Shown: positions 6,908-32,000 of the stretch, piece after piece | Layout of the letters: each line of letters opens with the position of its first letter | How positions within the stretch are numbered: position 1 is the stretch's first letter | Position numbers and translations under genes: made by a program | Assembly: GCF_042660085.1 (NCBI RefSeq) | Contig: NZ_JBHSTI010000008.1 | Span: 1,020,001 to 1,052,000 of the forward strand | DNA length: 32,000 nucleotides | DNA from: Longivirga aurantiaca | GTDB lineage: Bacteria; Actinomycetota; Actinomycetes; S36-B12; CAIYMF01 | Reading direction: 5' to 3' | Notes under the pieces: generated by a model | The model's database searches: none | Told to the model about the DNA's origin: nothing | The model's input: only the letters and a program-made list of their open reading frames with translations

Positions 6908-7127
6908 ACCTGCAACCGTACGGGGGTACCGGCCGCGCAGCGACACGGGCGCTGACGCTGCGTGATCCGCTGGGACGGCGCGAGTCGGCAGGAGTTCGTC
7001 CGATCGGGTGGTCGACGAGCACCGCACGTGCCCGACGCGGAAGACTGGACGCGCGATCGTGCGAGCCATCGGTCCGGCTCGGTCTCGGGGGCCGCGCCTC
7101 CGCGCGACGCGGATGGAGGAGCGCGTC

Positions 7128-8576
7128 ATGGCACGGCCGGTCGTCGTCCTGCTGGATCCGCATCACCCGTACGCCGGGAGGTTCTCGGCCATCGCCGACC
7201 GGCGCTGGGGCCTCGACACCGTCTGCCTCTGGAGCCGCACGACCGCCTGGGACCGCGCCCTGGCCACCGACTATCTCGACCGGTCCGACGCCGTGGTCGC
7301 GCACTACTCGTTGCCTCTCGACTCGATCGAGGCAGCGGCGGTCGCGCTCGGGCGGAGGCACGAGGTCGTCGGCGTCCTGCCGCACTTCGAGGACAGCCTC
7401 GAGGCGGCGGTGACCGTCGCCGAGACGCTGGGTGTCGCCTGGGCCGACCCGACCGATCTGCGTCGCTTCCGCAACAAGTCGGGGCTCAAGGCGCACCTGC
7501 GTGCGGTGCCCGGGGGCCCGCGCATCAATGCGACGGCGGCTGTGCGCACGCGGCAGGAGATCCGGGCAGCGCGCGAGACCGGGCCGTTCGAGCGCTTCGT
7601 GCTCAAGCCCAACGACGGCATGAGCAACAGCCGTATCGGCTTCTTCGACGGCGACGTCACCGACGAGCAGCTCGACACGTACCTCGCGTCGTCGGGCGGG
7701 GGCCTGCTCGCGATGGAGGAGTTCCTCGACGGCGCGGAGTACTGCGTCAACGGCCAGGTCGACGAGCACGGCGTCGTCACCACGCTCAGCGTCTACCGCA
7801 CCCACCACACCGCAGCCAACGGGCGCACGCAGCTCGCCGAGCGGTTCGAGCTGCTGCGTCACGACTCGCCGTTGTTCGACCGGCTCGCGACGTACGCCTC
7901 CGACGTGCTCACCGCCGCACGGCTGCGGCGCAGCCCGTTCCACATGGAGGTGATGGTCGACGACGACGGTCCATGCCTCATCGAGGTCGGCGCGCGCCTC
8001 GGCGGTGTCTCGATGGCGTTCGACGTCGGCGTCGTGCACGGCGGCGCCGTCGACGCGTTCGAGCTGGCCGTCCAGCACTACCTCGGCCGACCGTCCGAGC
8101 GGCCGCTCCAGCCTGACTGGGCCGCGTACGACGCCCGCGCTCTGCGCATCGTCTGCGGGATCAGCGACGAGGACGTGCGCGCGGCGTCCTGGGACGGCAT
8201 CCGGGAGGTCGAGGCGATGCCGGAGTTCGTGCACTGGGTCAGCAGGCCGCGCGCCGGACAGCGGGTCCGGCCCACGCGCGACCTGGCTACGAGCCCGTGG
8301 CAGGTCACCATCGCCGCGGCCTCGACCGAGCAGGCGGACGCCGCGGAGGCGCGCGTGCGCGCGCTCGTCGGGTGGAACCGCGCCACCGTCGACCGGTCGA
8401 AGGTCGGGCTGAAGGCGCATGCCACCGTGGTGCGCGCCGGCCACCGGCTGCGGCTCGTGCCCGGTGCCGTCCGCACGCGACCCGTTCCGCTCCCCACCAC
8501 GGTCCCCGTGGACATGACCGGACGTGCGGCGCGGCTGCCGTCGACGAACGACTCCCGGGGGGCAGGCACATGCTGA
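7128..8576 (+). CDS. ATP-grasp domain enzyme (carboxylate-amine ligase type), substrate unknown
   Basis: ATG 7128 lies 7 nt after GGAGGA (7115-7120). ATP-grasp signatures: FVLKPNDGMSNSRIGFF, MEEFLDGAEYCVNG, PFHMEVMVDDDGPCLIEVGARLGG. Confidence 0.8.
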   Translation: MARPVVVLLDPHHPYAGRFSAIADRRWGLDTVCLWSRTTAWDRALATDYLDRSDAVVAHYSLPLDSIEAAAVALGRRHEVVGVLPHFEDSLEAAVTVAETLGVAWADPTDLRRFRNKSGLKAHLRAVPGGPRINATAAVRTRQEIRAARETGPFERFVLKPNDGMSNSRIGFFDGDVTDEQLDTYLASSGGGLLAMEEFLDGAEYCVNGQVDEHGVVTTLSVYRTHHTAANGRTQLAERFELLRHDSPLFDRLATYASDVLTAARLRRSPFHMEVMVDDDGPCLIEVGARLGGVSMAFDVGVVHGGAVDAFELAVQHYLGRPSERPLQPDWAAYDARALRIVCGISDEDVRAASWDGIREVEAMPEFVHWVSRPRAGQRVRPTRDLATSPWQVTIAAASTEQADAAEARVRALVGWNRATVDRSKVGLKAHATVVRAGHRLRLVPGAVRTRPVPLPTTVPVDMTGRAARLPSTNDSRGAGTC

Positions 8577-9505
8577 AGCGCGTCGTGCGCCGGGTCGGCT
8601 ATGCCGGGCCGGTCCGTCGCACCATCACGAGCTCATCCGGTCTCGGGCGCGTCACCGGCCGCTTCGTGGGCGGCCTCGACGAGGTGTCCGCCGTCGCCGT
8701 GGCGCAGCGTCTGCGCGCGCAGGGGATGCTCACCACTCTGCATGTGCGCCAGGGGAATCCGGTCGACGAGGCCGGTGCTGACGCGCACGTGGAGCTCTAT
8801 CGCCGCCTGGTGGCCCAGCACGTCGAGGCCGGCTTGCGGGAGGGGTCGGAGATCTCGCTCAAGATGGCGCAGTTCGGCCTGCTCGCCCCGGGTGGTCTCG
8901 ACGGCGCGGTCGAGCGGATGCGTGCGACCGTGGCCGACGCCTATGCGGCCGGCATCGGCGTCACGGTCGACATGGAGGGCATCGAGGAGGTCGACGTCAC
9001 CCTCGACGCCGTGTGCCGCCTGCGTGCCGATCAGCCCGACGTGGGCATCGCGATCCAGGCCTACCTGCTCCGCAGCGAGGCCGACTGCCACGCTCTCGCG
9101 TCGACGGGTGCACGGGTGAGGCTCGTGAAGGGCGCGTACGGCGCCGGCCCCGACGTCGCGCACACCACGCGGGCCACGGTCGACTCGGCGTACGAGCGCT
9201 GCCTCGAGATCCTGTTCGCCGGCGGCGCCTACCCGATGGTCGCGAGCCACGACCTGCGCATGGTCGAGGCCGCCCGCGCGATGGCCCGCGAGGCGGGGAA
9301 GGGCCGCGACGCCTACGAGATCCAGATGCTCATGGGGGTGCGCACGCAGGACCAGGTGCGGCTTGCGGCCGCGGGCGAGCGGCTGCGCGTCTACGTGCCG
9401 TACGGCCCCGACTGGTACGGCTGGTTCGTCAACCGCATCGTCGAGAAGCCGAGCAACGTGCGGCTGCTGGCGCACGCGCTGGTGAGCCCCGGTCCGCGGG
9501 TCTGA
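8570..9505 (+). CDS. Proline dehydrogenase family protein (stand-alone PRODH barrel)
   Basis: ATG 8570 overlaps the ATP-grasp stop (ATGCTGA, 7-nt overlap). Family-typical motifs: [42 protein letters not shown]. Confidence 0.85.
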
Positions 9506-9552
9506 CCTGCGATTCGGCCGGTGCCGCGGGGTCGCCGTACCCTGTGACCACC

Positions 9553-11019
9553 ATGCGCACGTACGAGGTCCGCACCTACGGGTGCCAGATGAACGTCCAC
9601 GACTCCGAGCGTCTCTCCGGCTTGCTCGAGGGCGCCGGCTACGTGCGCCCCGGCGAGGGCGAGCAGGCCGACGTCGTCGTGTTCAACACCTGCGCCGTGC
9701 GCGAGAACGCCGACAACCGCCTCTACGGCAACCTCGGCCACCTCAAGCCGATCAAGGACGCGCACCCCGGCATGCAGATCGCCGTCGGCGGCTGCATGGC
9801 GCAGAAGGACCGCGGCGAGGTCGTGCGCCGTGCTCCGTGGGTCGACGTCGTCTTCGGCACCCACAACATCGGCTCGCTCCCGGTGCTGCTCGAGCGCGCC
9901 CGGTCGCTCGAGGAGGCTCAGGTCGAGATCCTCGAGTCGCTCGAGGTGTTCCCGTCGACCCTGCCGACGCGACGCGAGTCGGCGTACGCCGCCTGGGTGT
10001 CGATCAGCGTCGGCTGCAACAACACCTGCACGTTCTGCATCGTGCCGTCGCTGCGCGGCAAGGAGAAGGACCGGCGACCGGGCGACATCCTCGCCGAGAT
10101 CGAGGCGCTCGTGGCCGAGGGCGTGTGCGAGGTGACGCTGCTCGGGCAGAACGTGAACGCGTACGGCGTCGAGTTCGGCGACCGCGCCGCATTCGCCAAG
10201 CTGCTGCGCGCGTGCGGCTCGATCGACGGGCTCGACCGCGTGCGGTTCACCTCGCCGCACCCCGCCGACTTCACGGACGACGTGATCGCCGCGATGGCCG
10301 AGACGCCGAACGTCATGCCGCAGCTGCACATGCCGCTGCAGAGCGGCAGCGACCGCCTGCTCAAGGCGATGCGCCGGTCGTACCGCAGCGAGAAGTACCT
10401 CGGCATCATCGAGCGCGTGCGCGCGGCGATGCCCGACGCCGCGATCACCACCGACATCATCGTCGGCTTCCCCGGCGAGACCGACGAGGACCACGAGGCC
10501 ACCCTCGAGGTCGCGCGTGCCGCGCGGTTCGCCTCCGCGTTCACGTTCCAGTACTCGCCGCGCCCGGGCACTCCGGCCGCGACGTACGACGACCAGGTGC
10601 CGCCCGAGGTCGTGAAGGAGCGCTACGCCTCGCTCGCGGCGCTCGTCGACGAGATCGCGTGGGACGAGAACAAGCAGCTCGTGGGCCGCTCGGTCGAGCT
10701 GCTCGTGGCCGAGGGGGAGGGGCGCAAGGACGGCGCGACCCTGCGCCTGTCGGGCCGCGCACCCGACAACCGCCTCGTGCACTTCGTGCCGGGCGCCGAC
10801 CTGCCGCGCCCGGGCGACATGGTGACCGCGCAGATCACCTACGCCGCGCCGCACCACCTGGTGAGCGACCTGCCCGCCACCGGCCTGCGCCGCACCCGCA
10901 GCGGCGACGCCTGGGCCGACCGCCAGAGCGCCGACTCCTGCGCCCCGCCGTCCACCCCCGGCACCCCGGGAGCCGGCGCCCCCGTCCTCCTCGGCCTCCC
11001 CACCCTCCCCCCAGCCTGA
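9553..11019 (+). CDS. miaB: tRNA-2-methylthio-N6-dimethylallyladenosine synthase
   Basis: N-terminus [19 protein letters not shown]; radical-SAM [11 protein letters not shown]; C-terminal TRAM region; Pro-rich actinobacterial tail. The track ORF from 9013 is an upstream run-on. Confidence 0.95.
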
Positions 11020-21256: not shown

Positions 21257-21595
21257 ATGAGCGAGAGCAACGAGACCGCGGCCGAGGCCCAGGTCGAGAC
21301 CGTCGTCCTGGTCGACGTGGACGGCGACGGCACCGTCGACGCGGTCGTCGTCGTCGAGGACAACGGCGACTCCGTCACCGCGGTCGACCTCGACGGCGAC
21401 GGGACGATCGACGCCGTCATCACCACGACCGAGGGTGGCGCCACCGTCATCTCGATCGACGAGGACGGCGACGGCACCCCCGACGTCCTGCTCGTCGACG
21501 TCGACGGCGACGGCACCATCGATGCGGTCGCGACCCTGGACGAGAACGGCGAGATCGACGAGATCGCCGAGGTCGAGAAGGCCCCGGAGGCCTGA
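21257..21595 (+). CDS. Small highly acidic protein with four DxDGDGTxD calcium-binding-type repeats
   Basis: 112 aa. Repeats: VDVDGDGTVDAV, VDLDGDGTIDAV, IDEDGDGTPDVL, VDVDGDGTIDAV. No signal peptide or TM segment was seen. Confidence 0.7.
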   Translation: MSESNETAAEAQVETVVLVDVDGDGTVDAVVVVEDNGDSVTAVDLDGDGTIDAVITTTEGGATVISIDEDGDGTPDVLLVDVDGDGTIDAVATLDENGEIDEIAEVEKAPEA

Positions 21596-21674: not shown

Positions 21675-22700
21675 CTACGCGCGGTTCGCGCCGCGTGAGC
21701 GCTTCGCGTCGAGGAGCGCCTCGTCCGCGCGGCCCAGGGCCGCGTACAGCTCCTCGCCCGAGCCCATCTCGGCCCATCCTGCGGTCCATCCCCCGCTCGC
21801 CGGCAGTGCCGCCGCTGGCCGCTGCCCGCGTACGCGCGCCTCGAGGCTCCGAGCGTCGGCGAGCCGCGAGCCCACCAGCACCAGGGCGAACTCGTCCCCG
21901 CCGAAGCGACCGGCGAGATCGCTCTCGCGCAGCGCGCGCTGCCACGCGGCCGAGACGTCCCGCAGCCGCTGGTCGCCGGCGAGGTGCCCGTGCGTGTCGT
22001 TGTAGAGCTTGAACTGGTCGAGGTCGACGAGCCCGACGGTCACCGGCACCCCCGAGCGCGCACAGGCCGCGACGAGCGTGGGCGCCATGAGGTCGAGACC
22101 GCGGCGGTTGAGCAGCCCGGTGAGGTCGTCGTGCAGCGCCAGATCACGCAGCCGCCGCACGAGTCCCGACACGAGGATCGCGAGGCCCGTGATGACGGCG
22201 ACGATCATCCAGTAGACCGCGGGCGACGACATCTGGGGGTTGCTGCGCTCGGCCAGCCCGAGCAGCAGGAACGCCAGGGCGAGCGACACCAGGAGCCGGC
22301 CGCTGGTCAGGAAGTACGCCGCGAACACGACGTAGCTGGCGAGGCCGAGCCCGATGAGCACCTGCCCCTCGGCGGTCGGGCTCAGCACCACCGCCCCGGC
22401 GGCGAGGAGGTACCCCAGGCCGAGGGAGACATCGACGCCGGTGCCGTGGGGGAGCAGGGGCAGCACCCACAGGGTGACGGCGACGAGCAGCAGGAGGACC
22501 CCGGCGAGGATCGCCAACGACGCGTCGCTGACCGATGCCTGCACCTCGGCGACGGTGAACCCGAGGCAGAGCACCGCGGCGAGCGCCTGGATCCCGGCGA
22601 GGATGCGGAAGGGCGTGCGACGCCGCGTGAGGTGATGGTCGTCGCGTTGGGCGGGACGCCTCGTCCGGATGGAGGGGACACCCGCCCCCTCGGTGGTCAT
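21675..22700 (-). CDS. Membrane-anchored diguanylate cyclase (GGDEF domain)
   Basis: N-terminal half has about 6 TM segments. DDLTGLLNRRG, DLDQFKLYNDTHGHLAGD, I-site RESD and active-site GRFGGDEF are all present. Confidence 0.9.
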   Translation of the reverse strand: MTTEGAGVPSIRTRRPAQRDDHHLTRRRTPFRILAGIQALAAVLCLGFTVAEVQASVSDASLAILAGVLLLLVAVTLWVLPLLPHGTGVDVSLGLGYLLAAGAVVLSPTAEGQVLIGLGLASYVVFAAYFLTSGRLLVSLALAFLLLGLAERSNPQMSSPAVYWMIVAVITGLAILVSGLVRRLRDLALHDDLTGLLNRRGLDLMAPTLVAACARSGVPVTVGLVDLDQFKLYNDTHGHLAGDQRLRDVSAAWQRALRESDLAGRFGGDEFALVLVGSRLADARSLEARVRGQRPAAALPASGGWTAGWAEMGSGEELYAALGRADEALLDAKRSRGANRA

Positions 22701-22775
22701 GCGCTCAGGCTACGGAGCGCGCCCGTCTCGTTGCACGCTGCGCAGAGCAGCACTCACCCACGCTTGGATGTGCCC

Positions 22776-23489
22776 ATGCTCACCCTCGCGACGTGGAACG
22801 TGCTCGCCCCGGCGTACGCGCTGCCCACCCGGTACGAGGGGGTCCCGTCGGACCTGCTGGAGGCGCCGCACCGCACGCCGCGCGTGCACGCGCGCCTGGA
22901 GGCGCTGCTCGACCGGTGCGACGTCGTCGCGGTGCAGGAGGCCGACCTCGACCTGGTCGGGTGGCTGCGCGAGGTCGCGGGCGCGAGCGTGCTGCACGCG
23001 CCCCGGCCCTCGTCGGTGGACGGCGTGCTGCTCGCGTCGCGACGGCACCGGCTCGACGGGCTGACCGGTGGCTCGGCCGATCAGCGCCGTACCTGGGCAG
23101 CGGCAGAGGTGTCGGGCGTGCTGGTGGTGTCGGTCCACCTCGATCCGGAGTGGCCAGCCAAGCGGCTGCGTGGCGCGGTGCAGGCGGCGCAGCTGGTCAC
23201 GTGGCTCGACGAGGAGGCCGACGCCCGTGCGGTCGTCATCGCCGGCGACATCAACGCGTCGTGGGACCGGCAGACCGGCGATGCGTTGCGCTGGGGCAGG
23301 TTCGACGCTCAGCGGGTAGGTGCCACTGCGGCCACGAACGGGAAGTGCCGTGAGCTGGACGTGATCGCGACCCGGGGGTGCGCGGCGGCCGTGGAGCCGA
23401 CCGGGCTCCCGCCCGTGGGGACGGCGTACCGGCTGCCCGATCTCGACGTGCCGAGCGACCACGCGCCGCTGCTGGCGACGATCCGGTAG
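22776..23489 (+). CDS. Endonuclease/exonuclease/phosphatase (EEP) family protein
   Basis: MLTLATWNVL..., VVAVQEAD, AGDINAS and the C-terminal VPSDHAPLLATI are EEP catalytic motifs. The track ORF from 21984 is a run-on. Confidence 0.85.
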   Translation: MLTLATWNVLAPAYALPTRYEGVPSDLLEAPHRTPRVHARLEALLDRCDVVAVQEADLDLVGWLREVAGASVLHAPRPSSVDGVLLASRRHRLDGLTGGSADQRRTWAAAEVSGVLVVSVHLDPEWPAKRLRGAVQAAQLVTWLDEEADARAVVIAGDINASWDRQTGDALRWGRFDAQRVGATAATNGKCRELDVIATRGCAAAVEPTGLPPVGTAYRLPDLDVPSDHAPLLATIR

Positions 23490-23490
23490 G

Positions 23491-23949
23491 TCAGCTCAGG
23501 GAGGGGGAGCGGTTCGTGGCGAGGAGGTAGTCGTCGTGCGCGGCGCCGACGACGCCCATCGTGCTGAGGTCGGAGGTCCACAGCGCGTAGCCCGGCCACC
23601 ATCCGCTGGAGGTCAGCGTGCGCACGCGCTCGTTGAGCGCGACCGCGGCGTCGACGTCGAGCCCCGGGAGAACGGCGATGAACTCGTCCCGGCCGGAGCG
23701 GGCCATGATCGCCCCGAACGGCAGGGCCGACTGCCAGGCGATGACGGCGCCGTCGATCGCCTCGTCGCCGGCGCGCACGGAGTCGTCGTCGCGCATGTGC
23801 TTGACGGGCCGCACCTCGAAGAAGACCACCGCGACGGGTCGGTCGGCGCTCCACGCGCTCTCGGCGACGGCTCGGCCGTCCTGGCGGAGCTTCCTGCCGG
23901 ACCACACCCCGGTCACCGGGTCGACCTCGTGCACGGGGCTCACCACCAT
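23491..23949 (-). CDS. Soluble degenerate GGDEF-domain protein (SGRDEF, metal-site residues lost)
   Basis: The 152-aa product from ATG 23949 aligns by eye to the neighbouring cyclases: DPVTGVWSGRKL vs D.LTGL.NRRGL, and ARSGRDEFIAVLPG vs ARFGGDEFAVVLPG. DLD is replaced by FEV and there is no RxxD I-site. Confidence 0.6.
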   Translation of the reverse strand: MVVSPVHEVDPVTGVWSGRKLRQDGRAVAESAWSADRPVAVVFFEVRPVKHMRDDDSVRAGDEAIDGAVIAWQSALPFGAIMARSGRDEFIAVLPGLDVDAAVALNERVRTLTSSGWWPGYALWTSDLSTMGVVGAAHDDYLLATNRSPSLS

Positions 23950-24120
23950 CGAAGAGTAGGCGCTAGGGCATGGACGCCCCAAGGCCTGACGGGGACGTCC
24001 CTCGTACGAGTGACCAGCGTCCCGCACGGATCGACGGGGTCGCGCGGCACGGAAGGTGAACGTGAGGAGAACAAGAACCTCGGCAATGGTGACGCAGCAG
24101 AATCACTCGACCACGCAGCG

Positions 24121-24290
24121 TCAGGCCTTGGGACGGAGGCGGCTGCGCTGGGCGTCGACGAGGGCCTCGTCGGCGCGGTCGAGGGCGTCGTACAGGTCCT
24201 CGCCGAGGACCGGCGGCGAGGCCGACGCTGAACGCGGCGCTCGTGCGGGCTCGCACCCGGGCGATCACGTCCTCGACCTGCGGGGGAGGA
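24121..24290 (-). pseudogene. Frameshifted 3' fragment of a GGDEF gene
   Basis: One minus-strand frame reads ...PPQVEDVIARVRARTSAAFSVGLAAGP. The adjacent frame reads GEDLYDALDRADEALVDAQRSRLRPKA* (stop 24121-24123). Joined across one frameshift, these parallel the C-terminus of the 24347..25345 product (AQELVERVRQRCASGWSIGLETWDAGEDLYAALARADASL). Confidence 0.5.
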
Positions 24291-24346
24291 CGCTCACGGC
24301 GCGATCGGCATGGTTCCTGCCCAGCGGACGCCGGCGACCGGTCAGG

Positions 24347-25345
24347 TCACTCCGGGTGCGACTCGAGGGCCCGTTCGGCTGCGAAGAGCGACGCGTCGGC
24401 TCGCGCGAGGGCGGCGTACAGGTCCTCGCCCGCGTCCCAGGTCTCCAGCCCGATGCTCCACCCCGAGGCGCAGCGCTGGCGGACCCGTTCGACGAGCTCC
24501 TGCGCCTGGGCCGGCGTCGAGCCGGGGAGAACCACCGCGAACTCGTCCCCGCCGAACCGCGCCAGCACGTCGCCATGGCGGAGCTCGGCGTTCCAGCAGG
24601 CGGCGACGCACCGGAGCTCGTCGTCGCCGGCGAGGTGTCCGTAGAGGTCGTTGAAGCCCTTGAAGTCGTCGAGGTCGAGGATGCCGACGGTGACGCAGCC
24701 GCCGCTGCGGCGTGCCGAGGCGCTGACGGCCGGTGCCAGGAGGTCGAGGCCGCGCCGGTTGAAGGCGCCGGTGAGCGAGTCGTGCAGGGCCTGGTCGCGC
24801 AGCCTCACCGCGAGCCGCGACACCATCATCGACACGCCCACGAGCGCGAGGCAGATGACGACGTAGTCGACCGCGGTGTCGAGCAGCGGGTTCACGAGCA
24901 GGGCGGCGCCGTAGCCCACGACGATCACGACGAGGTGGAGTGCGAGCAGCCGCGGCGGTCGATAGCTCGCCGCGAACACGCCCAGCAGGACCAGCCCGAC
25001 GCCGATGAGCACCTGGTCCTGGGCCGTCGGCACCACGAGCGCGCCCCCGCTCGCGACCACCGCGCCGAACACGATGCCGACGTCCAGGCCGACGCCCTCC
25101 CGGAACCGCGGGGCGACCCAGCGGCTGAGCGCGGAGGCCACCAGCAGGAGCACCCCGGCGGCGACGTCGTACGGGCGCAGGGCGTCATCGGTGCCAGGGA
25201 TGATGCTGAACAGCAGCGAGACGATCCCGCCGATGAGCCAGATGAGCGAGAGCACGCGGTAGGGGGCCAGCCGCTCGGCCGCCGAGCTCGCTGACGGGTG
25301 CGTTGTCTCGAGCGCACGGCCAGGGCCGTCGCCCCGTACCGACAT
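24347..25345 (-). CDS. Membrane-anchored diguanylate cyclase (GGDEF domain), paralog of 21675..22700
   Basis: Multi-TM N-terminal half. DSLTGAFNRRG, DLDDFKGFNDLYGHLAGD, I-site RHGD and ARFGGDEF are present. Confidence 0.9.
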   Translation of the reverse strand: MSVRGDGPGRALETTHPSASSAAERLAPYRVLSLIWLIGGIVSLLFSIIPGTDDALRPYDVAAGVLLLVASALSRWVAPRFREGVGLDVGIVFGAVVASGGALVVPTAQDQVLIGVGLVLLGVFAASYRPPRLLALHLVVIVVGYGAALLVNPLLDTAVDYVVICLALVGVSMMVSRLAVRLRDQALHDSLTGAFNRRGLDLLAPAVSASARRSGGCVTVGILDLDDFKGFNDLYGHLAGDDELRCVAACWNAELRHGDVLARFGGDEFAVVLPGSTPAQAQELVERVRQRCASGWSIGLETWDAGEDLYAALARADASLFAAERALESHPE

Positions 25346-27596: not shown

Positions 27597-27785
27597 GCAG
27601 CCGGGTAACCAGGGTGCTCTCTACGACGGATTCGCCACTCAGCCACCGCGCGGGCCCCGAAGCTGGGTAACCAGGGTGCGCTCTACGACGGATTCTCCAC
27701 TCAGCTATCGCGCGGGCCCCGCAGCCGGGTAGCCAGGGTGCGTTCTACGACGGATTCGCCACTCAGCCAGCACACCCGCGCGCCG
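27597..27785 (-). repeat. Array B: 62-bp tandem repeat, about 3 copies, same family as array A but inverted
   Basis: The (c/t)cgggta(a/g)cc landmarks recur at 27601, 27663 and 27725, a period of 62. The B2 unit is 37/43 identical to the reverse complement of the array A unit over gggtaac...ctcagcta. Confidence 0.85.
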
Positions 27786-27926
27786 GTCGTACGGGGTGCG
27801 GGGTACGCCGTCCGGTGGGCGGTCGATCCGAGGCTCGTGCGCGTCAGGTGGTTTGCGCGCTCCGCGACCGGGGAGCACAGGGTCATGCGGTGACGCGTGC
27901 TGTCGCCCCGATGAGCAGGAGCAGCC

Positions 27927-28805
27927 ATGACCTACCAGCCCGAGCGCGACGGATTCAGCGTCGCCCGTTCGAACGCCGACACCCAGGACGACCGCCCCGT
28001 CGTCGTCGACGACGACGGCACCACCCGCACCGCCGACGACGCGCACCTGGTCGACGACACGCGCACCGATCACGTCGCCAGCGAAAGGCTGGAGACCGAC
28101 CGCGACGCTGGCCGGCACACTAGGGCGACGGACGCCGAGGATGCCCACACCGTGGTCGCCGGCGACCCGCGCGCCGTCCGTGGCCGCCGTGTCGACACCG
28201 TCGCGACGACGATGATGGCGCCCTCTGCCGTCGTCGCCCGCGAGCGTGCAGCGTTCGGCGGCATCAAGTGGGGCTCGGCGTTCTTCGGCTGGCTCAGCGC
28301 GATGGGCCTCGCCGTCATCCTCACCGGCCTCGTCGCCGGCGCTGGCACGGCACTCGGCATCGCCAACGACGTGAACGGCTCGGATGTCGTGGGCGACGTG
28401 ACCCGCGGGAACGCCTCGACCATCGGCGTCGCCGGTGCGATCGCCGTACTTCTGATCATCCTGGTCTCGTACTACGCGGGCGGCTACGTCGCCGGCCGCA
28501 TGGCCCGCTTCGACGGTGCCCGCCAGGGCCTCGCCGTCTGGCTGTGGTCGATCGTGATCGCCGTCATCGTCGGCGTCGTCGCCCTCGTGGCCGGGAGCCA
28601 GTACGACGTGCTCGGCAACCTCAACGTGTTCCCGCGCCTGCCGTTCGGCGACTCCGAGCTGAGCACAGCAGGCGTCATCGCGCTGCTCGCGACGGTCGTG
28701 GTCAGCCTGCTCGGCGCCATCCTCGGCGGACTCGCGGGGATGGGCTTCCACCGCAAGGTCGACGCCGTGGCGTTCGACCCCGAGCCCGTGACCGTCTCCG
28801 CCTGA
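27927..28805 (+). CDS. Membrane protein of unknown function with long acidic N-terminal region
   Basis: ATG lies 6 nt after AGGAG. The first ~105 aa are Asp/Thr/Arg-rich and low-complexity. Four hydrophobic helices follow, starting at FGGIKWGSAFFGWLSAMGLAVIL. Confidence 0.7.
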   Translation: MTYQPERDGFSVARSNADTQDDRPVVVDDDGTTRTADDAHLVDDTRTDHVASERLETDRDAGRHTRATDAEDAHTVVAGDPRAVRGRRVDTVATTMMAPSAVVARERAAFGGIKWGSAFFGWLSAMGLAVILTGLVAGAGTALGIANDVNGSDVVGDVTRGNASTIGVAGAIAVLLIILVSYYAGGYVAGRMARFDGARQGLAVWLWSIVIAVIVGVVALVAGSQYDVLGNLNVFPRLPFGDSELSTAGVIALLATVVVSLLGAILGGLAGMGFHRKVDAVAFDPEPVTVSA

Positions 28806-28809
28806 TCTC

Positions 28810-28836
28810 GACCGTCGGCTGAGGAGCCGACGGGTC
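28810..28836 (+). terminator. Hairpin immediately after the membrane-protein stop
   Basis: GACCGTCGGCT gagg AGCCGACGGGTC: a 11-12 bp stem with one bulged base and a 4-nt loop, starting 5 nt after TGA 28803-28805. Confidence 0.6.
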
Positions 28837-28973
28837 TGGCGACGCGCACGTGGTGGAGGCACCCACTCTCCCGCCGTCCCGTGCAAGCGCCGGATATCCG
28901 GACGAGGGCCGTGACCCCGCTCGAGTCACGGTTCTCGTCATGTTTGGCGTCAGCGATTGCGGGCATTGAGCGT

Positions 28974-29029
28974 CTGCGATTCCGTCGTCTCCCGGGCCGG
29001 ATTGGGGCCGGGAGACGGCGGGTCCGCAG
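28974..29029 (+). repeat. 56-bp palindromic element H1 (downstream of the CPBP gene)
   Basis: ctgcgattccgtcgtctcccgggccgg...ggccgggagacggcgggtccgcag has imperfect ~24-nt arms. It is 46/56 identical, without gaps, to H2. Confidence 0.65.
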
Positions 29030-29068
29030 CTGGTACGCCGCCCGCCGCCGGATCACCAGAGCGCCGGA

Positions 29069-29818
29069 TCACCAGAGCGCGTAGATGGGCCCGACGAGGA
29101 AGTACGCCGTCATCCCGATCGTGTTGTTGAAGCCGTGGGCCAGGACCGCCGCCCAGAGGCTGCGGTAGTGCAGGCGGAGCACGGCGAAGAACAGGGCGTC
29201 GAGGAAGGTCAGGACGACACCGACCGTGCCCTGCTCGGTGTGGATCAGCGCGAAGAGCGCGGACGACACAAGAACAGCCACCACCACGCCAAGCGCGCCC
29301 GGACCGATCGCGTCCGCGATCCGGGTGAGGACGAAGCCGCGGAACGCGAGCTCCTCGCCGACGGCCGCGAGGGTCCACGAGAGCGCGAGCAGCACAGCAA
29401 GGCGGGCGACGTCGCCCTCCAGGCTGACGAAGGCCGACACGTCCTGCTGCTCGCCGATCAGGTGCTCGAGCACCGGCATGAACAGCGCGATCACCGCGAC
29501 CGTCCAGCCGACCGAGAGCGCGAGAACGATCCCGGCAGTCCGCCAGGGATGGTCGAGTCGTCGCATCCCCAGCGTGCTCAGGTGCTCGCGACGTACGAGC
29601 AGCGAGACCACCATGACCAGCAGGATCACCAGCGACGGCAGGGCCAGATCCAGGACGACCGCCACCGCGCAGGCCACCACCTCGACGGCAGCGACCCAGC
29701 GCCACAGCGTCGAGCACCGTCGCGGCGGATCCGAGGTGAATGCTCCGATGTCGGCGCGCGCAGCGCTCGTGAGTGCGGCCACCGTCCACCCCCAGGCGAG
29801 ATCCGTTCGGGCCGTCAT
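29069..29818 (-). CDS. CPBP family intramembrane glutamic endopeptidase (CAAX protease / Abi family)
   Basis: Motif 1 AAVGEELAFRGF, motif 2 SSALFALIH, motif 3 AVLAHGFNN. The protein has multiple TM segments. Confidence 0.85.
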   Translation of the reverse strand: MTARTDLAWGWTVAALTSAARADIGAFTSDPPRRCSTLWRWVAAVEVVACAVAVVLDLALPSLVILLVMVVSLLVRREHLSTLGMRRLDHPWRTAGIVLALSVGWTVAVIALFMPVLEHLIGEQQDVSAFVSLEGDVARLAVLLALSWTLAAVGEELAFRGFVLTRIADAIGPGALGVVVAVLVSSALFALIHTEQGTVGVVLTFLDALFFAVLRLHYRSLWAAVLAHGFNNTIGMTAYFLVGPIYALW

Positions 29819-29966
29819 CGAGGTTAGGACCGTGAGGCGCGCGGTCGCAGCCGAGCGGGCGGGGTGTCAGGCGGCTCACCGACGTGCGGCGCCTGACTGC
29901 CCGTGGCGACGGCCGGGCTGCCTCGACGTGCGGTGCGGGTCACGGCCCCGGCAGGCGGCGTACGGG

Positions 29967-30022
29967 CTGCGAATCCGTCGTCTCCCGGGCCGGTCAGGAC
30001 CTGGGAGACGACGGATCCACAG
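29967..30022 (+). repeat. 56-bp palindromic element H2 (upstream of CPBP; probable hsp20 terminator)
   Basis: ctgcgaatccgtcgtctccc...gggagacgacggatccacag has a perfect 14-bp core stem, ATCCGTCGTCTCCC / GGGAGACGACGGAT. It lies 21 nt beyond the hsp20 stop (30043). Confidence 0.65.
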
Positions 30023-30042
30023 ATGGTGCGCCGTGCCGACGG

Positions 30043-30510
30043 TCAGGTGGCGGTGACCTGCGGCGCGTCGACGTGGCCGGCGACAACCTTGGCGTCGTTC
30101 GTCACCGCGATGTCGATGCGGCGCGGCTTGGCCTTCTCCGCCACGGGGATCGACACGGTGAGCACGCCATTCTCATAGGTCGCCGAGATGCCGTCGGTGT
30201 CGACGCCCTCGCCGAGGGAGAGCTGGCGCATGTAGCTGCCGGTGAAGCGCTCGCTCGCGAGCCACTCGACCGACTCCTCGGTGCGGCCGCTGCGCTCGGC
30301 GCGGATGGTGAGCGTGCCGTTGTCCACGTGGACGTCGACGGAGCCCGGGTCGACGCCCGGGAGGTCGGCGTGCAGCACGTAGTGGTCGCCGGACTTGTAG
30401 AGGTCCATCGGCATGAAGCGCGGTGCGCGCGGGGAGCCTGCCGGGACTCCGAGCATCTGCTCGGTCAGCCGGTCCAGGTCACGGAACGGGTCGAAACGAA
30501 GCACGGCCAT
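30043..30510 (-). CDS. Small heat-shock protein, Hsp20/alpha-crystallin family
   Basis: ATG 30510 lies 6 nt after AAGGAGG. MAVLRFDPFRDLDRL, the ACD core (DLYKSGDHYVLHADLPGVD...LTIRAER) and YENGVLTVSIP are present. The track start 30540 is upstream of the SD. Confidence 0.92.
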   Translation of the reverse strand: MAVLRFDPFRDLDRLTEQMLGVPAGSPRAPRFMPMDLYKSGDHYVLHADLPGVDPGSVDVHVDNGTLTIRAERSGRTEESVEWLASERFTGSYMRQLSLGEGVDTDGISATYENGVLTVSIPVAEKAKPRRIDIAVTNDAKVVAGHVDAPQVTAT

Positions 30511-30579
30511 GGTGACCTCCTTGGGCGCTGTTCGTGCCACCCCACCACCGCGGTGAGGCGGCTCCGTGCACGGCTCAGA

Positions 30580-30606
30580 TTAGCAGTCGGCACCGGAGAG
30601 TGCCAA
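30580..30606. promoter_or_regulatory. CIRCE-like inverted repeat (putative HrcA operator) upstream of hsp20
   Basis: TTAGCAGTC-N9-GAGTGCCAA matches the CIRCE consensus TTAGCACTC-N9-GAGTGCTAA at 16/18 positions with exact 9-nt spacing. It lies 70-96 nt upstream of the hsp20 ATG. Confidence 0.55.
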
Positions 30607-30835
30607 GTGGTACGACGCCCGCGATCCGATGCGGCACACCAGGTATGGGTCACCGTCTGCCCGATCAGGGGGCCGAGTCGACGCGTTCCGTGCGGCCGTC
30701 CGCGTGGTGCCGCATGAGGGGGCCGGCGTCGTCGTTCGGCGCCGTCGTACAGATCTGCTGCCACGAGGATCGATCCCCGGTCGGGCGACCTCGCCGACCT
30801 CCTCGTGCTCGGGCGTGAACCAGAACCGAGCATGG

Positions 30836-30872
30836 CCGGACACCACGAGGCGGGAGGCCTCGTGGTGTCCGG
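30836..30872. other. Strong isolated hairpin in an unassigned region
   Basis: 15-bp stem CCGGACACCACGAGG / CCTCGTGGTGTCCGG with the 7-nt loop cgggagg. Confidence 0.5.
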
Positions 30873-31030
30873 TCCGGGGTGGAGAACTAGAGGCGGCGCA
30901 GCACCGCGACGAGCGTGCCGACGCACGGCGACCGGTGAGCGGCTCACGAGGCGGTGGTCGGATCGGCGGCGCGTCCGACCCCTGCGCCCCGCCGGCCGGG
31001 GACGGGTCCGCGGTCGTGCGCAGGGGGCGG

Positions 31031-31061
31031 CGCCGCATCGCGTAGAGGGGGAGATGCGGCG
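31031..31061 (-). terminator. Hairpin 26 nt downstream of the repeat-protein stop
   Basis: 9-bp stem CGCCGCATC / GATGCGGCG with a 13-nt loop. Confidence 0.45.
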
Positions 31062-31086
31062 CCGCGTCGGGGACGTCCGAGGACGT

Positions 31087-31854
31087 CTACATGCTGGCCA
31101 GGATGGCCCGCTCGGCCACGTCGGGGCCGCCGGACATCCAGTAGGCGATGCCGGCCCGCTCGGCCACGTCGGGACCGCCGGACAGCACCGGGACGAGCCC
31201 TGCGCGCTCGGCCACGTCGGGGCCACCGGACTTCCAGTAGCCCGGCACCGAGGTCTTCGCGAGGATCGCGCGCTCGGCCACGTCGGGGCCGCCGGACAGC
31301 ACCGGGACGAGCCCTGCGCGCTCGGCCACGTCGGGGCCGCCGGACATCCAGTAGCCCGGCACCGAGGTCTTCGCGAGGATCGCGCGCTCGGCCACGTCGG
31401 GACCGCCGGACATGCCGTCATCGAGGGCGGCCGCCAGGGCCATGCGCTCGAGACCGGCGCGCTCCGCGACGTCGACACCGCCGGGGAGCAGGTACTCGAT
31501 GCCCGCGCGCTCGGCCACGTCGGGTCCGCCCGACATGTCCGTGACGACGGGGATGAGCGTGACAGGCGCCGGCGCCGGAGGCGCGGGCGGCTGGGTCTGG
31601 GTCGTCGACATCAGCTGGATCACGATCGCCGCGACCACCATGCCGACGAGGACGACGATGATGAGCCCGACCAGGATCGGGGAGGGACGCGCCGCCGGGG
31701 CGGGCGTCGGAGTCGTGCCGACGGGCGGAATCGTCGGGGACACCTCCACCTTGGGGGTGTCCGTGAGCGCGTGCAGCGACGAGATGTCGTCCGGGACGAC
31801 GGGCTGCTCGTGCAGGGTGTCGAACTCATGCGGGTTCTGCGTGGGAGTACTCAT
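31087..31854 (-). CDS. Single-pass membrane protein with eight SGGPDVAERA repeats
   Basis: ATG 31854 lies 6 nt after GGGAGG. The N-terminal ~57 aa are followed by the TM helix ILVGLIIVVLVGMVVAAIVIQL and a Pro-rich linker. Then come 8 copies of (M/K)SGGPDVAERA(G/I)(L/I), separated by short hydrophobic/aromatic segments, to the C-terminus. Confidence 0.8.
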   Translation of the reverse strand: MSTPTQNPHEFDTLHEQPVVPDDISSLHALTDTPKVEVSPTIPPVGTTPTPAPAARPSPILVGLIIVVLVGMVVAAIVIQLMSTTQTQPPAPPAPAPVTLIPVVTDMSGGPDVAERAGIEYLLPGGVDVAERAGLERMALAAALDDGMSGGPDVAERAILAKTSVPGYWMSGGPDVAERAGLVPVLSGGPDVAERAILAKTSVPGYWKSGGPDVAERAGLVPVLSGGPDVAERAGIAYWMSGGPDVAERAILASM

Positions 31855-32000
31855 GACGACCTCCCAGGTCGCGACGCCGATTCCCTGGCGTCCAGCTCAA
31901 GGATAGATCGCGGCCGAGGTCGTAGCGCGCCGGGCGAGCCCGGGCGCCGGGTGCTGCTGGGGCCCGCCCGACCCGCACGCGCCGAGGGCCGAGAACCAGA

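Follow-up and report, generated by a model that had tools for sequence, protein, structure and literature searches.

A predicted single-pass membrane protein with eight SGGPDVAERA repeats beside a lexA remnant in Longivirga aurantiaca

The DNA considered here (the window) is a stretch of 32,000 nucleotides from Longivirga aurantiaca (contig NZ_JBHSTI010000008.1, positions 1,020,001 to 1,052,000). Close to its end lies a minus-strand gene for a 255-residue orphan repeat protein, referred to below as the target, whose product is predicted to comprise an N-terminal tail, one transmembrane helix, a Pro/Ala-rich linker and eight tandem units built on the near-invariant 10-residue core SGGPDVAERA (Table 1). 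A single-helix protein followed by eight such cores had been described in the earlier note on this DNA, and the open reading frame (ORF), the helix at residues 59-84 and the repeat finder agree with that description. The repeat finder and the unit table also reproduce the core coordinates, spacings and variable segments given there, and Tandem Repeats Finder (TRF) and a block alignment bear out a recently duplicated 114-bp super-unit.

Long ORFs occur in several frames over the target stretch because the window has a G+C content of 73%. The G+C content by codon position is 0.73/0.54/0.93 in the 255-residue frame, compared with 0.69/0.47/0.92 in the neighbouring Hsp20 gene and similar values in the nearby CPBP gene. 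Alternative ORFs overlapping the target (0.64/0.84/0.73, 0.77/0.94/0.59 and 0.51/0.73/0.89) lack this coding signature of the genome. The target frame is the sole frame here that has it, and is a genuine coding ORF. Third-position G+C (GC3) amounts to 0.92 in the non-repeated first 110 codons and to 0.945 in the repeats.

Each unit follows the formula [S/P]GG[P/V]DVAERA plus a hydrophobic variable segment of 5-15 residues, which gives a whole unit of 15-25 residues. The units start at 31533, 31485, 31410, 31344, 31296, 31230, 31182 and 31134 on the minus strand, and their variable segments are, in order, GIEYLL, GLERMALAAALDDGM, ILAKTSVPGYWM, GLVPVL, ILAKTSVPGYWK, GLVPVL, GIAYWM and ILASM; these share no residue class beyond hydrophobicity, and no residue is common to all of them. 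The start-to-start spacings of the eight copies, as returned by the repeat finder, are 48, 48, 66, 48, 66, 75 and 48 nt, every one a multiple of 3. A 23-nt core pattern with up to 3 mismatches occurs 7 times, always inside the target ORF (0.03 occurrences expected by chance); the eighth copy, outside this pattern, is the divergent GGVDVAERA unit.

In TRF, the stretch 31157-31412 has a period of 114 bp, with 2.2 copies and 97% matches. The three differences between the two 114-bp blocks are two synonymous GGT/GGC changes and one ATG/AAG change (M170/K208). The duplication is recent and was presumably produced by unequal recombination between units. Within the 30-nt core, 10 nucleotide sites are variable; 7 of them are third codon positions, all synonymous, and the 3 non-synonymous sites all belong to unit 2 (Ser to Pro, Pro to Val). 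Even in this most diverged copy, the DVAERA stretch has 3 nucleotide differences from the other units, all silent, and at least 9 silent codon variants are present among the 8 cores. Silent sites have drifted while the core peptide stayed constant, and a protein-level function is therefore favoured; the pattern suggests that selection acts on the core peptide.

AlphaFold was run without an alignment, both on the full-length protein and on the repeat region alone. The helix at residues 59-84 is the sole confidently predicted element of the whole protein, and the Kyte-Doolittle 19-residue maximum (3.3, at residues 60-61) coincides with it. The N-terminal tail contains a single Arg, three residues ahead of the helix. 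By the positive-inside rule, and given how large the C-terminal part is, the N-terminus would lie inside the cell and the C-terminus outside. The repeat region has a net charge of -8, and neither it nor the rest of the protein contains Cys. Structure prediction of the repeats, which the earlier note had proposed, gave a predicted local distance difference test score (pLDDT) of 30-38 in the full-length and repeat-only models, with short low-confidence helices on every DVAERA stretch. No confident or compact fold was obtained, and the array is probably not a compact domain.

Several known types of repeat or membrane protein were considered for this layout. Amphipathic-helix repeats of the apolipoprotein or perilipin kind were rejected, since the helix segments of the repeats are weakly amphipathic (hydrophobic moment 0.16-0.36) and the units measure 15, 16, 22 and 25 residues, not a regular 11/22. 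In folded solenoid repeats one would expect the opposite of the pattern seen here, in which the hydrophilic core is invariant and the hydrophobic inserts vary in length. Membrane-bound anti-sigma factors have a cytoplasmic N-terminal zf-HC2 or RskA-like domain and are usually encoded beside an extracytoplasmic function (ECF) sigma gene; this assignment was also rejected, because residues 1-107 give no Pfam match and hold no His/Cys motif, and no sigma gene lies in the visible flank.

Relatives were sought in protein libraries (a word-indexed search of 5.8 billion proteins and an exhaustive HMMER search of 1.84 billion cluster representatives) and in DNA collections comprising one genome per species (185,579 species), 241 million metagenome records, and viral, phage and plasmid sequences. 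With the whole protein as query, Pfam returned no family even at E<=10, and repeat-only and N-terminal-only queries were sub-threshold at best. The best NCBIfam match reached 11 bits against a cut-off of 86, the best PHROGs match had an E-value of 0.24, and PADLOC and the PDB sequences gave 0 matches for the target; the repeat is thus, as had been supposed, not a member of any named family in these collections at threshold. The word-indexed protein search returned nothing at E<=0.001. The sole HMMER match among the cluster representatives (P0001, E 4e-7) was rejected: it is a 1356-residue SGSVDTASFAFTASYL low-complexity repeat protein that shares composition and periodicity only. Scans of the genome and metagenome DNA with back-translated peptides yielded no relative. 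A degenerate pattern of two DVAERA cores at the observed spacing had 7 matches in the metagenomes, all of them chance or out-of-frame and none in a comparable context, and 0 matches in viral contigs. Nothing was found by tblastn of the target against the phage and plasmid collections or against 80 Hsp20-centred genome loci. As none of these searches turned up anything related, the sequence family is new in that sense.

The sole other trace of the target is a 3.4-kb contig of a sister strain (L001, run SRR36426638), 97.9% identical to window 27738-31134. It ends exactly where the last repeat unit starts, holding the last 47 nt of the target, a break expected of short-read assembly. The public gene call at L001 2-670 (+), which corresponds to window about 31133-30465 (-), gives a 222-residue product in a non-coding alternative frame; it crosses the lexA remnant and the intergenic region, and the G+C content of this frame in the window is 0.64/0.84/0.73. 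This call is probably spurious, and protein libraries may hold the target region in the wrong frame.

The start codon of the target is preceded by a Shine-Dalgarno-like sequence, and its stop is followed by a terminator-like hairpin (Table 1), for which RNA folding gives -40 kcal/mol over 81 nt (z = -4.5 against shuffles). A consensus promoter and terminator scan found nothing, as expected at such GC content; the hairpin was unreported by the terminator scan because it is without a T-run. The window holds no Rfam family and no tRNA gene. For the tail of a possible upstream gene on the same strand, its frame has the highest GC3 (0.88), from just 34 visible codons. If this gene is real, the target could be the last gene of a small operon, co-transcribed with a partner beyond the window.

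Table 1. Features of the target gene and of its surroundings (positions in the window)
Feature	Position	Strand	Details and source
CDS of the 255-residue orphan repeat protein (target)	31087..31854	-	ATG 31854-31852, stop TAG 31089-31087; ORF list
Shine-Dalgarno-like GGGAGG	31860..31865	-	5 nt before ATG; read from sequence
N-terminal tail, residues 1-58	31681..31854	-	Pro/Thr-rich, net charge -5; charge count; low AlphaFold confidence
Single transmembrane helix, residues 59-84	31603..31680	-	AlphaFold pLDDT 78-96; Kyte-Doolittle
Pro/Ala-rich linker, residues 85-107	31534..31602	-	STTQTQPPAPPAPAPVTLIPVVTDM; translation
Array of eight units, residues 108-255	31090..31533	-	148 residues; repeat finder, unit table
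Tandem duplication of a 114-bp two-unit block	31157-31270 + 31271-31384	-	111/114 identical
Terminator-like hairpin	31027..31065	-	22 nt past stop; 13-bp perfect stem, 13-nt loop; inverted-repeat listing
Possible 3' end of upstream same-strand gene	31897..32000	-	ends ...RRATTSAAIYP and stop, 42 nt before target ATG; exits window
lexA remnant, last ~36 nt	30887..30923	-	ends ...LVAVLRRL and stop; between target and Hsp20, downstream of target
Hairpin with 16-bp perfect arms	30836..30872	-	directly after lexA remnant; aligns with post-lexA-stop region of L002, L003
CIRCE-like inverted repeat	30580-30606	-	TTGGCACTC-N9-GACTGCTAA; upstream of Hsp20; conserved in L002, L003
CPBP (Rce1-like, Abi) gene	29069-29818	-	Pfam E 4e-19
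292-residue membrane protein	27927-28805	+	no Pfam or PADLOC match
GGDEF ORFs (three)	21675-22700, 23491-24027, 24347-25345	-	successive, within 21675-25345
112-residue ORF	21257-21595	+	Pfam E about 1e-6 to 1e-7
ATP-grasp gene	7008-8576		among housekeeping genes
Radical-SAM MiaB-like gene	9013-11019		among housekeeping genes

The window as a whole is a housekeeping stretch of actinomycete chromosome with an RNase Y-like gene, a MiaB-type radical-SAM gene (UPF0004), miaA, dapF, hflX, three GGDEF genes and a DinG-like helicase gene. The closest genomes are two metagenome-assembled genomes (MAGs), L002 and L003, whose Hsp20 is 95% and 94% identical, respectively; L003 is labelled Candidatus Nanopelagicales, and the LexA cluster of both includes Longivirga aurantiaca (Sporichthyaceae). 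In these MAGs, nrdR and a LysM gene are followed by lexA and Hsp20, and then by a variable slot, the gene of a 292-residue membrane protein and the helicase gene. Upstream of Hsp20, nucleotide homology between the window and the MAGs extends to about 30651 and reappears only at the lexA remnant. The remnant shows 34/36 identity to the lexA 3' ends of L002, L003 and L089-L093, with an abrupt fall to random level upstream, and no lexA is present elsewhere in the window. Of lexA, about 36 nt are left here, and the target accordingly sits at a sharp breakpoint, on lineage-specific DNA that interrupts or replaces the ancestral lexA-Hsp20 junction; the earlier note did not mention this setting.

The position after lexA is occupied by a different gene in each relative examined. 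The target segment may form one end of an element that integrated at, and duplicated, the 3' end of lexA, or may stem from a local rearrangement. One junction is visible; the second junction and any integrase would lie past window position 32000. A search for the second junction via LexA homologs, cluster members and their contigs gave none from the SRR36426638 sample of the sister strain and no lexA-bearing contig of the same species, and the contigs reached via LexA homologs match the window solely over the final 35 nt of lexA.

Gene content varies in the slot that separates Hsp20 from the 292-residue membrane protein. In the window and L001 this slot contains the CPBP/Rce1-like gene, and in L002 (10648-11285) a small four-helix membrane protein and a short putative helix-turn-helix-like ORF. 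The Hsp20 gene, which is conserved in the MAGs, is preceded by a sequence resembling the controlling inverted repeat of chaperone expression (CIRCE), a hint that Hsp20 is under heat-shock control of the HrcA type, independently of the target. In the 292-residue protein, the N-terminal region is acidic and the multi-helix membrane domain is rich in glycine; the protein's place beside the DinG-like helicase is kept in L002 and L003 (60-70% identity). Farther away, the 112-residue ORF shows weak multi-family matches to EF-hand/FG-GAP-like Ca-binding loops and may encode a small secreted or Ca-binding repeat protein. The middle one of the three GGDEF ORFs (178 residues) covers two thirds of the domain and may be a truncated paralog.

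The CPBP gene lies on the same strand as the target, 1.3 kb away, and the earlier note had tentatively connected the two. This connection gained no comparative support: the Hsp20 gene stands between them, and the adjacency of CPBP to Hsp20 is seen in 0 of 80 genome loci, being present only in the window and L001. The model for such a pair would be MroQ and AgrD: the membrane protease MroQ is described as directly involved in AgrD pheromone maturation in Staphylococcus (PMC9388083), and a preprint (bioRxiv 10.1101/516914) places MroQ in the Abi/CPBP family. The likeness consists in a same-strand CPBP gene at 1.3 kb and a candidate substrate that is membrane-associated; the differences are the intervening Hsp20 gene, the unconserved adjacency and a target without Cys or a CAAX box. 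The target was rejected as a CAAX-type CPBP/Rce1 substrate, since its C-terminus is ILASM and it has no Cys. The missing CAAX box does not exclude cleavage by CPBP, because the substrate rules of bacterial CPBP enzymes are undefined. A link between CPBP and the target is pure speculation.

The target is best read as a real, lineage-restricted accessory envelope protein, in which an extracytoplasmic flexible array would show one conserved motif and be remodelled by unequal recombination; we give this reading a probability of roughly 0.5. The signal-anchor helix would insert the product into the cytoplasmic membrane, with the short acidic N-terminal tail staying inside, and the Pro/Ala stalk would hold the 148-residue array of eight modules outside the membrane. 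Each module would consist of the hydrophilic and strictly conserved SGGPDVAERA, that is, a flexible Gly-Gly followed by the Pro-Asp-x-x-Glu start of a short helix, and of a hydrophobic or aromatic segment of variable length after it. The array is better seen as flexible and multivalent, presenting one short peptide motif many times over at the cell envelope; this conserved motif would be the functional element, serving either for binding or for recognition. Modules would change in number and type through unequal recombination between units, as the 114-bp duplication illustrates. The gene may have arrived with, or arisen in, the DNA segment that interrupts the ancestral lexA-Hsp20 junction. In its anchor, Pro/Ala linker, outer repeats, recombining copy number and narrow distribution, the target resembles the lineage-specific tandem-repeat envelope proteins of Gram-positives, including actinomycetes. 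It differs from them in its very short units (15-25 residues), in a conserved part that is hydrophilic and a variable part that is hydrophobic, and in having no sortase, LysM, choline-binding or other named wall-binding motif.

Several points weigh against the envelope-protein reading. The proposed topology hangs on one Arg. A membrane-surface-binding role is not indicated, because the repeat helices are weakly amphipathic, and the arrangement of core and insert fits processing-site architectures no worse than a display function. Gene conversion between cores could mimic purifying selection. With no homolog, the evolutionary test is limited to the internal repeats, and any upstream partner gene would lie outside the window.

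The strongest competing explanation is that the ORF is young or non-functional, a proto-gene in which a short segment was tandemly amplified in recently acquired or rearranged DNA and which owes its openness and its coding appearance only to a high-GC coding-like origin, with no selected function. This is a possible explanation, though a doubtful one. It would account for the lack of detectable homologs, for the location at a breakpoint of rearrangement, where every relative examined has something different in the slot, and for the failure of AlphaFold to find a fold. The core also weakly resembles a very common element, the first helix (...DVAERAGVS...) of TetR/LacI-type helix-turn-helix regulators, through DVAERAG, which could hint at an origin from a fragment. 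Pfam TetR_N matches the core below threshold (E 0.02-0.06, 13.6-15.1 bits against a 24-bit cut-off), and the target differs from that helix in that about 10 residues match, no recognition helix follows, and the location would be extracytoplasmic; the resemblance may be at most a hint at the origin of the amplified segment, or a coincidence. Against a proto-gene stand about 9 silent events in the cores with replacements in one unit only, seven spacings that are all in frame, a GC3 signature that also spans the non-repeated N-terminal 110 codons, a good ribosome-binding site, the gene's own terminator and a plausible anchor-linker-array layout. The same in-frame spacings (48, 66 and 75 nt, multiples of 3 and not of the helical turn) also count against a role of the repeats in the DNA itself, whether as iterons or as a protein-binding array belonging to an integrated element, with the ORF incidental; such a role is very improbable. 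Eight near-identical elements of about 30 bp within 450 bp, beside a possible integration junction, would suit such a role, but their variation is concentrated at the third codon positions of one frame, the core as read from the sequence has no dyad symmetry, and the ORF runs on through 110 non-repeated codons with a coding signature. A CRISPR-like (clustered regularly interspaced short palindromic repeats) or iteron reading was rejected because of the spacings, the third-position variation and the missing dyad symmetry.

A membrane-tethered multi-core precursor, an idea raised in the earlier note, is an unlikely alternative built by analogy. Proteolysis at the SGGPDVAERA spacers would free short hydrophobic peptides, acting as signals or antimicrobials; the candidates include GLVPVL, GIAYWM, GIEYLL(P), ILAKTSVPGYWM/K and others. 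The protease would be extracytoplasmic or intramembrane, the repertoire would grow by unit duplication, and the system would represent an actinobacterial unmodified-peptide counterpart of multi-core pheromone precursors and of precursors of peptides made by ribosomes and modified after translation (RiPPs), an unlikely proposal likewise. What stood of the idea is the pattern itself, invariant flanks around cores variable in sequence and length, as in multi-core precursors, a kind described as rare in RiPP biosynthesis (PMC5934393), together with a flank peptide that stays constant at the protein level despite silent changes; the CPBP/Rce1-like membrane protease gene nearby may be counted on the same side. 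Gram-positive pheromones are short and hydrophobic, as are the 5-15-residue variable segments of the target. In cyanobactin PatE, microviridin and yeast alpha-factor precursors, near-invariant spacers likewise alternate with less conserved short segments. These precursors, however, have a soluble leader or a cleavable signal, whereas the target has a 58-residue tail and a transmembrane anchor where a soluble leader is expected, matches no leader family, and shows no sequence similarity to them. Neither Cys nor any other modifiable residue type, such as Ser/Thr or Lys with Asp/Glu, is common to its variable segments, and no cognate protease, cyclase, transporter or other maturation enzyme is seen in the visible neighbourhood, where the downstream flank contains the lexA remnant, Hsp20, CPBP and the membrane protein and the upstream flank extends just 146 nt to the window edge. 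Maturation genes expected beside such precursors would encode subtilisin-like PatA/PatG, YcaO, radical-SAM or ATP-grasp enzymes or a transporter; the ATP-grasp and radical-SAM genes of the window are more than 20 kb from the target, among housekeeping genes. The conserved Hsp20 gene with its own CIRCE-like operator divides CPBP from the target, with the CPBP-Hsp20 adjacency missing in 80 of 80 genome loci. It would be unusual for a system of signalling or antibiotic production to occur in one species only and to lack relatives, and nothing in PADLOC, PHROGs or Pfam points to one.

Orphan single-pass proteins that carry short tandem repeats form a well-known class, and none of the present findings demonstrates a new mechanism. 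At present the target is a single-species orphan, whose worth is that of a candidate for proteomics and which leaves current understanding unchanged. If the protein is made, SGGPDVAERA would be a new short repeat for which about 15 billion predicted proteins contain no detectable relative, and the gene would be a small, clear-cut case of an orphan envelope gene that expands by tandem duplication of units and keeps its core peptide constant. If the precursor reading were true, it would mean a new way for actinomycetes to produce families of secreted hydrophobic peptides.

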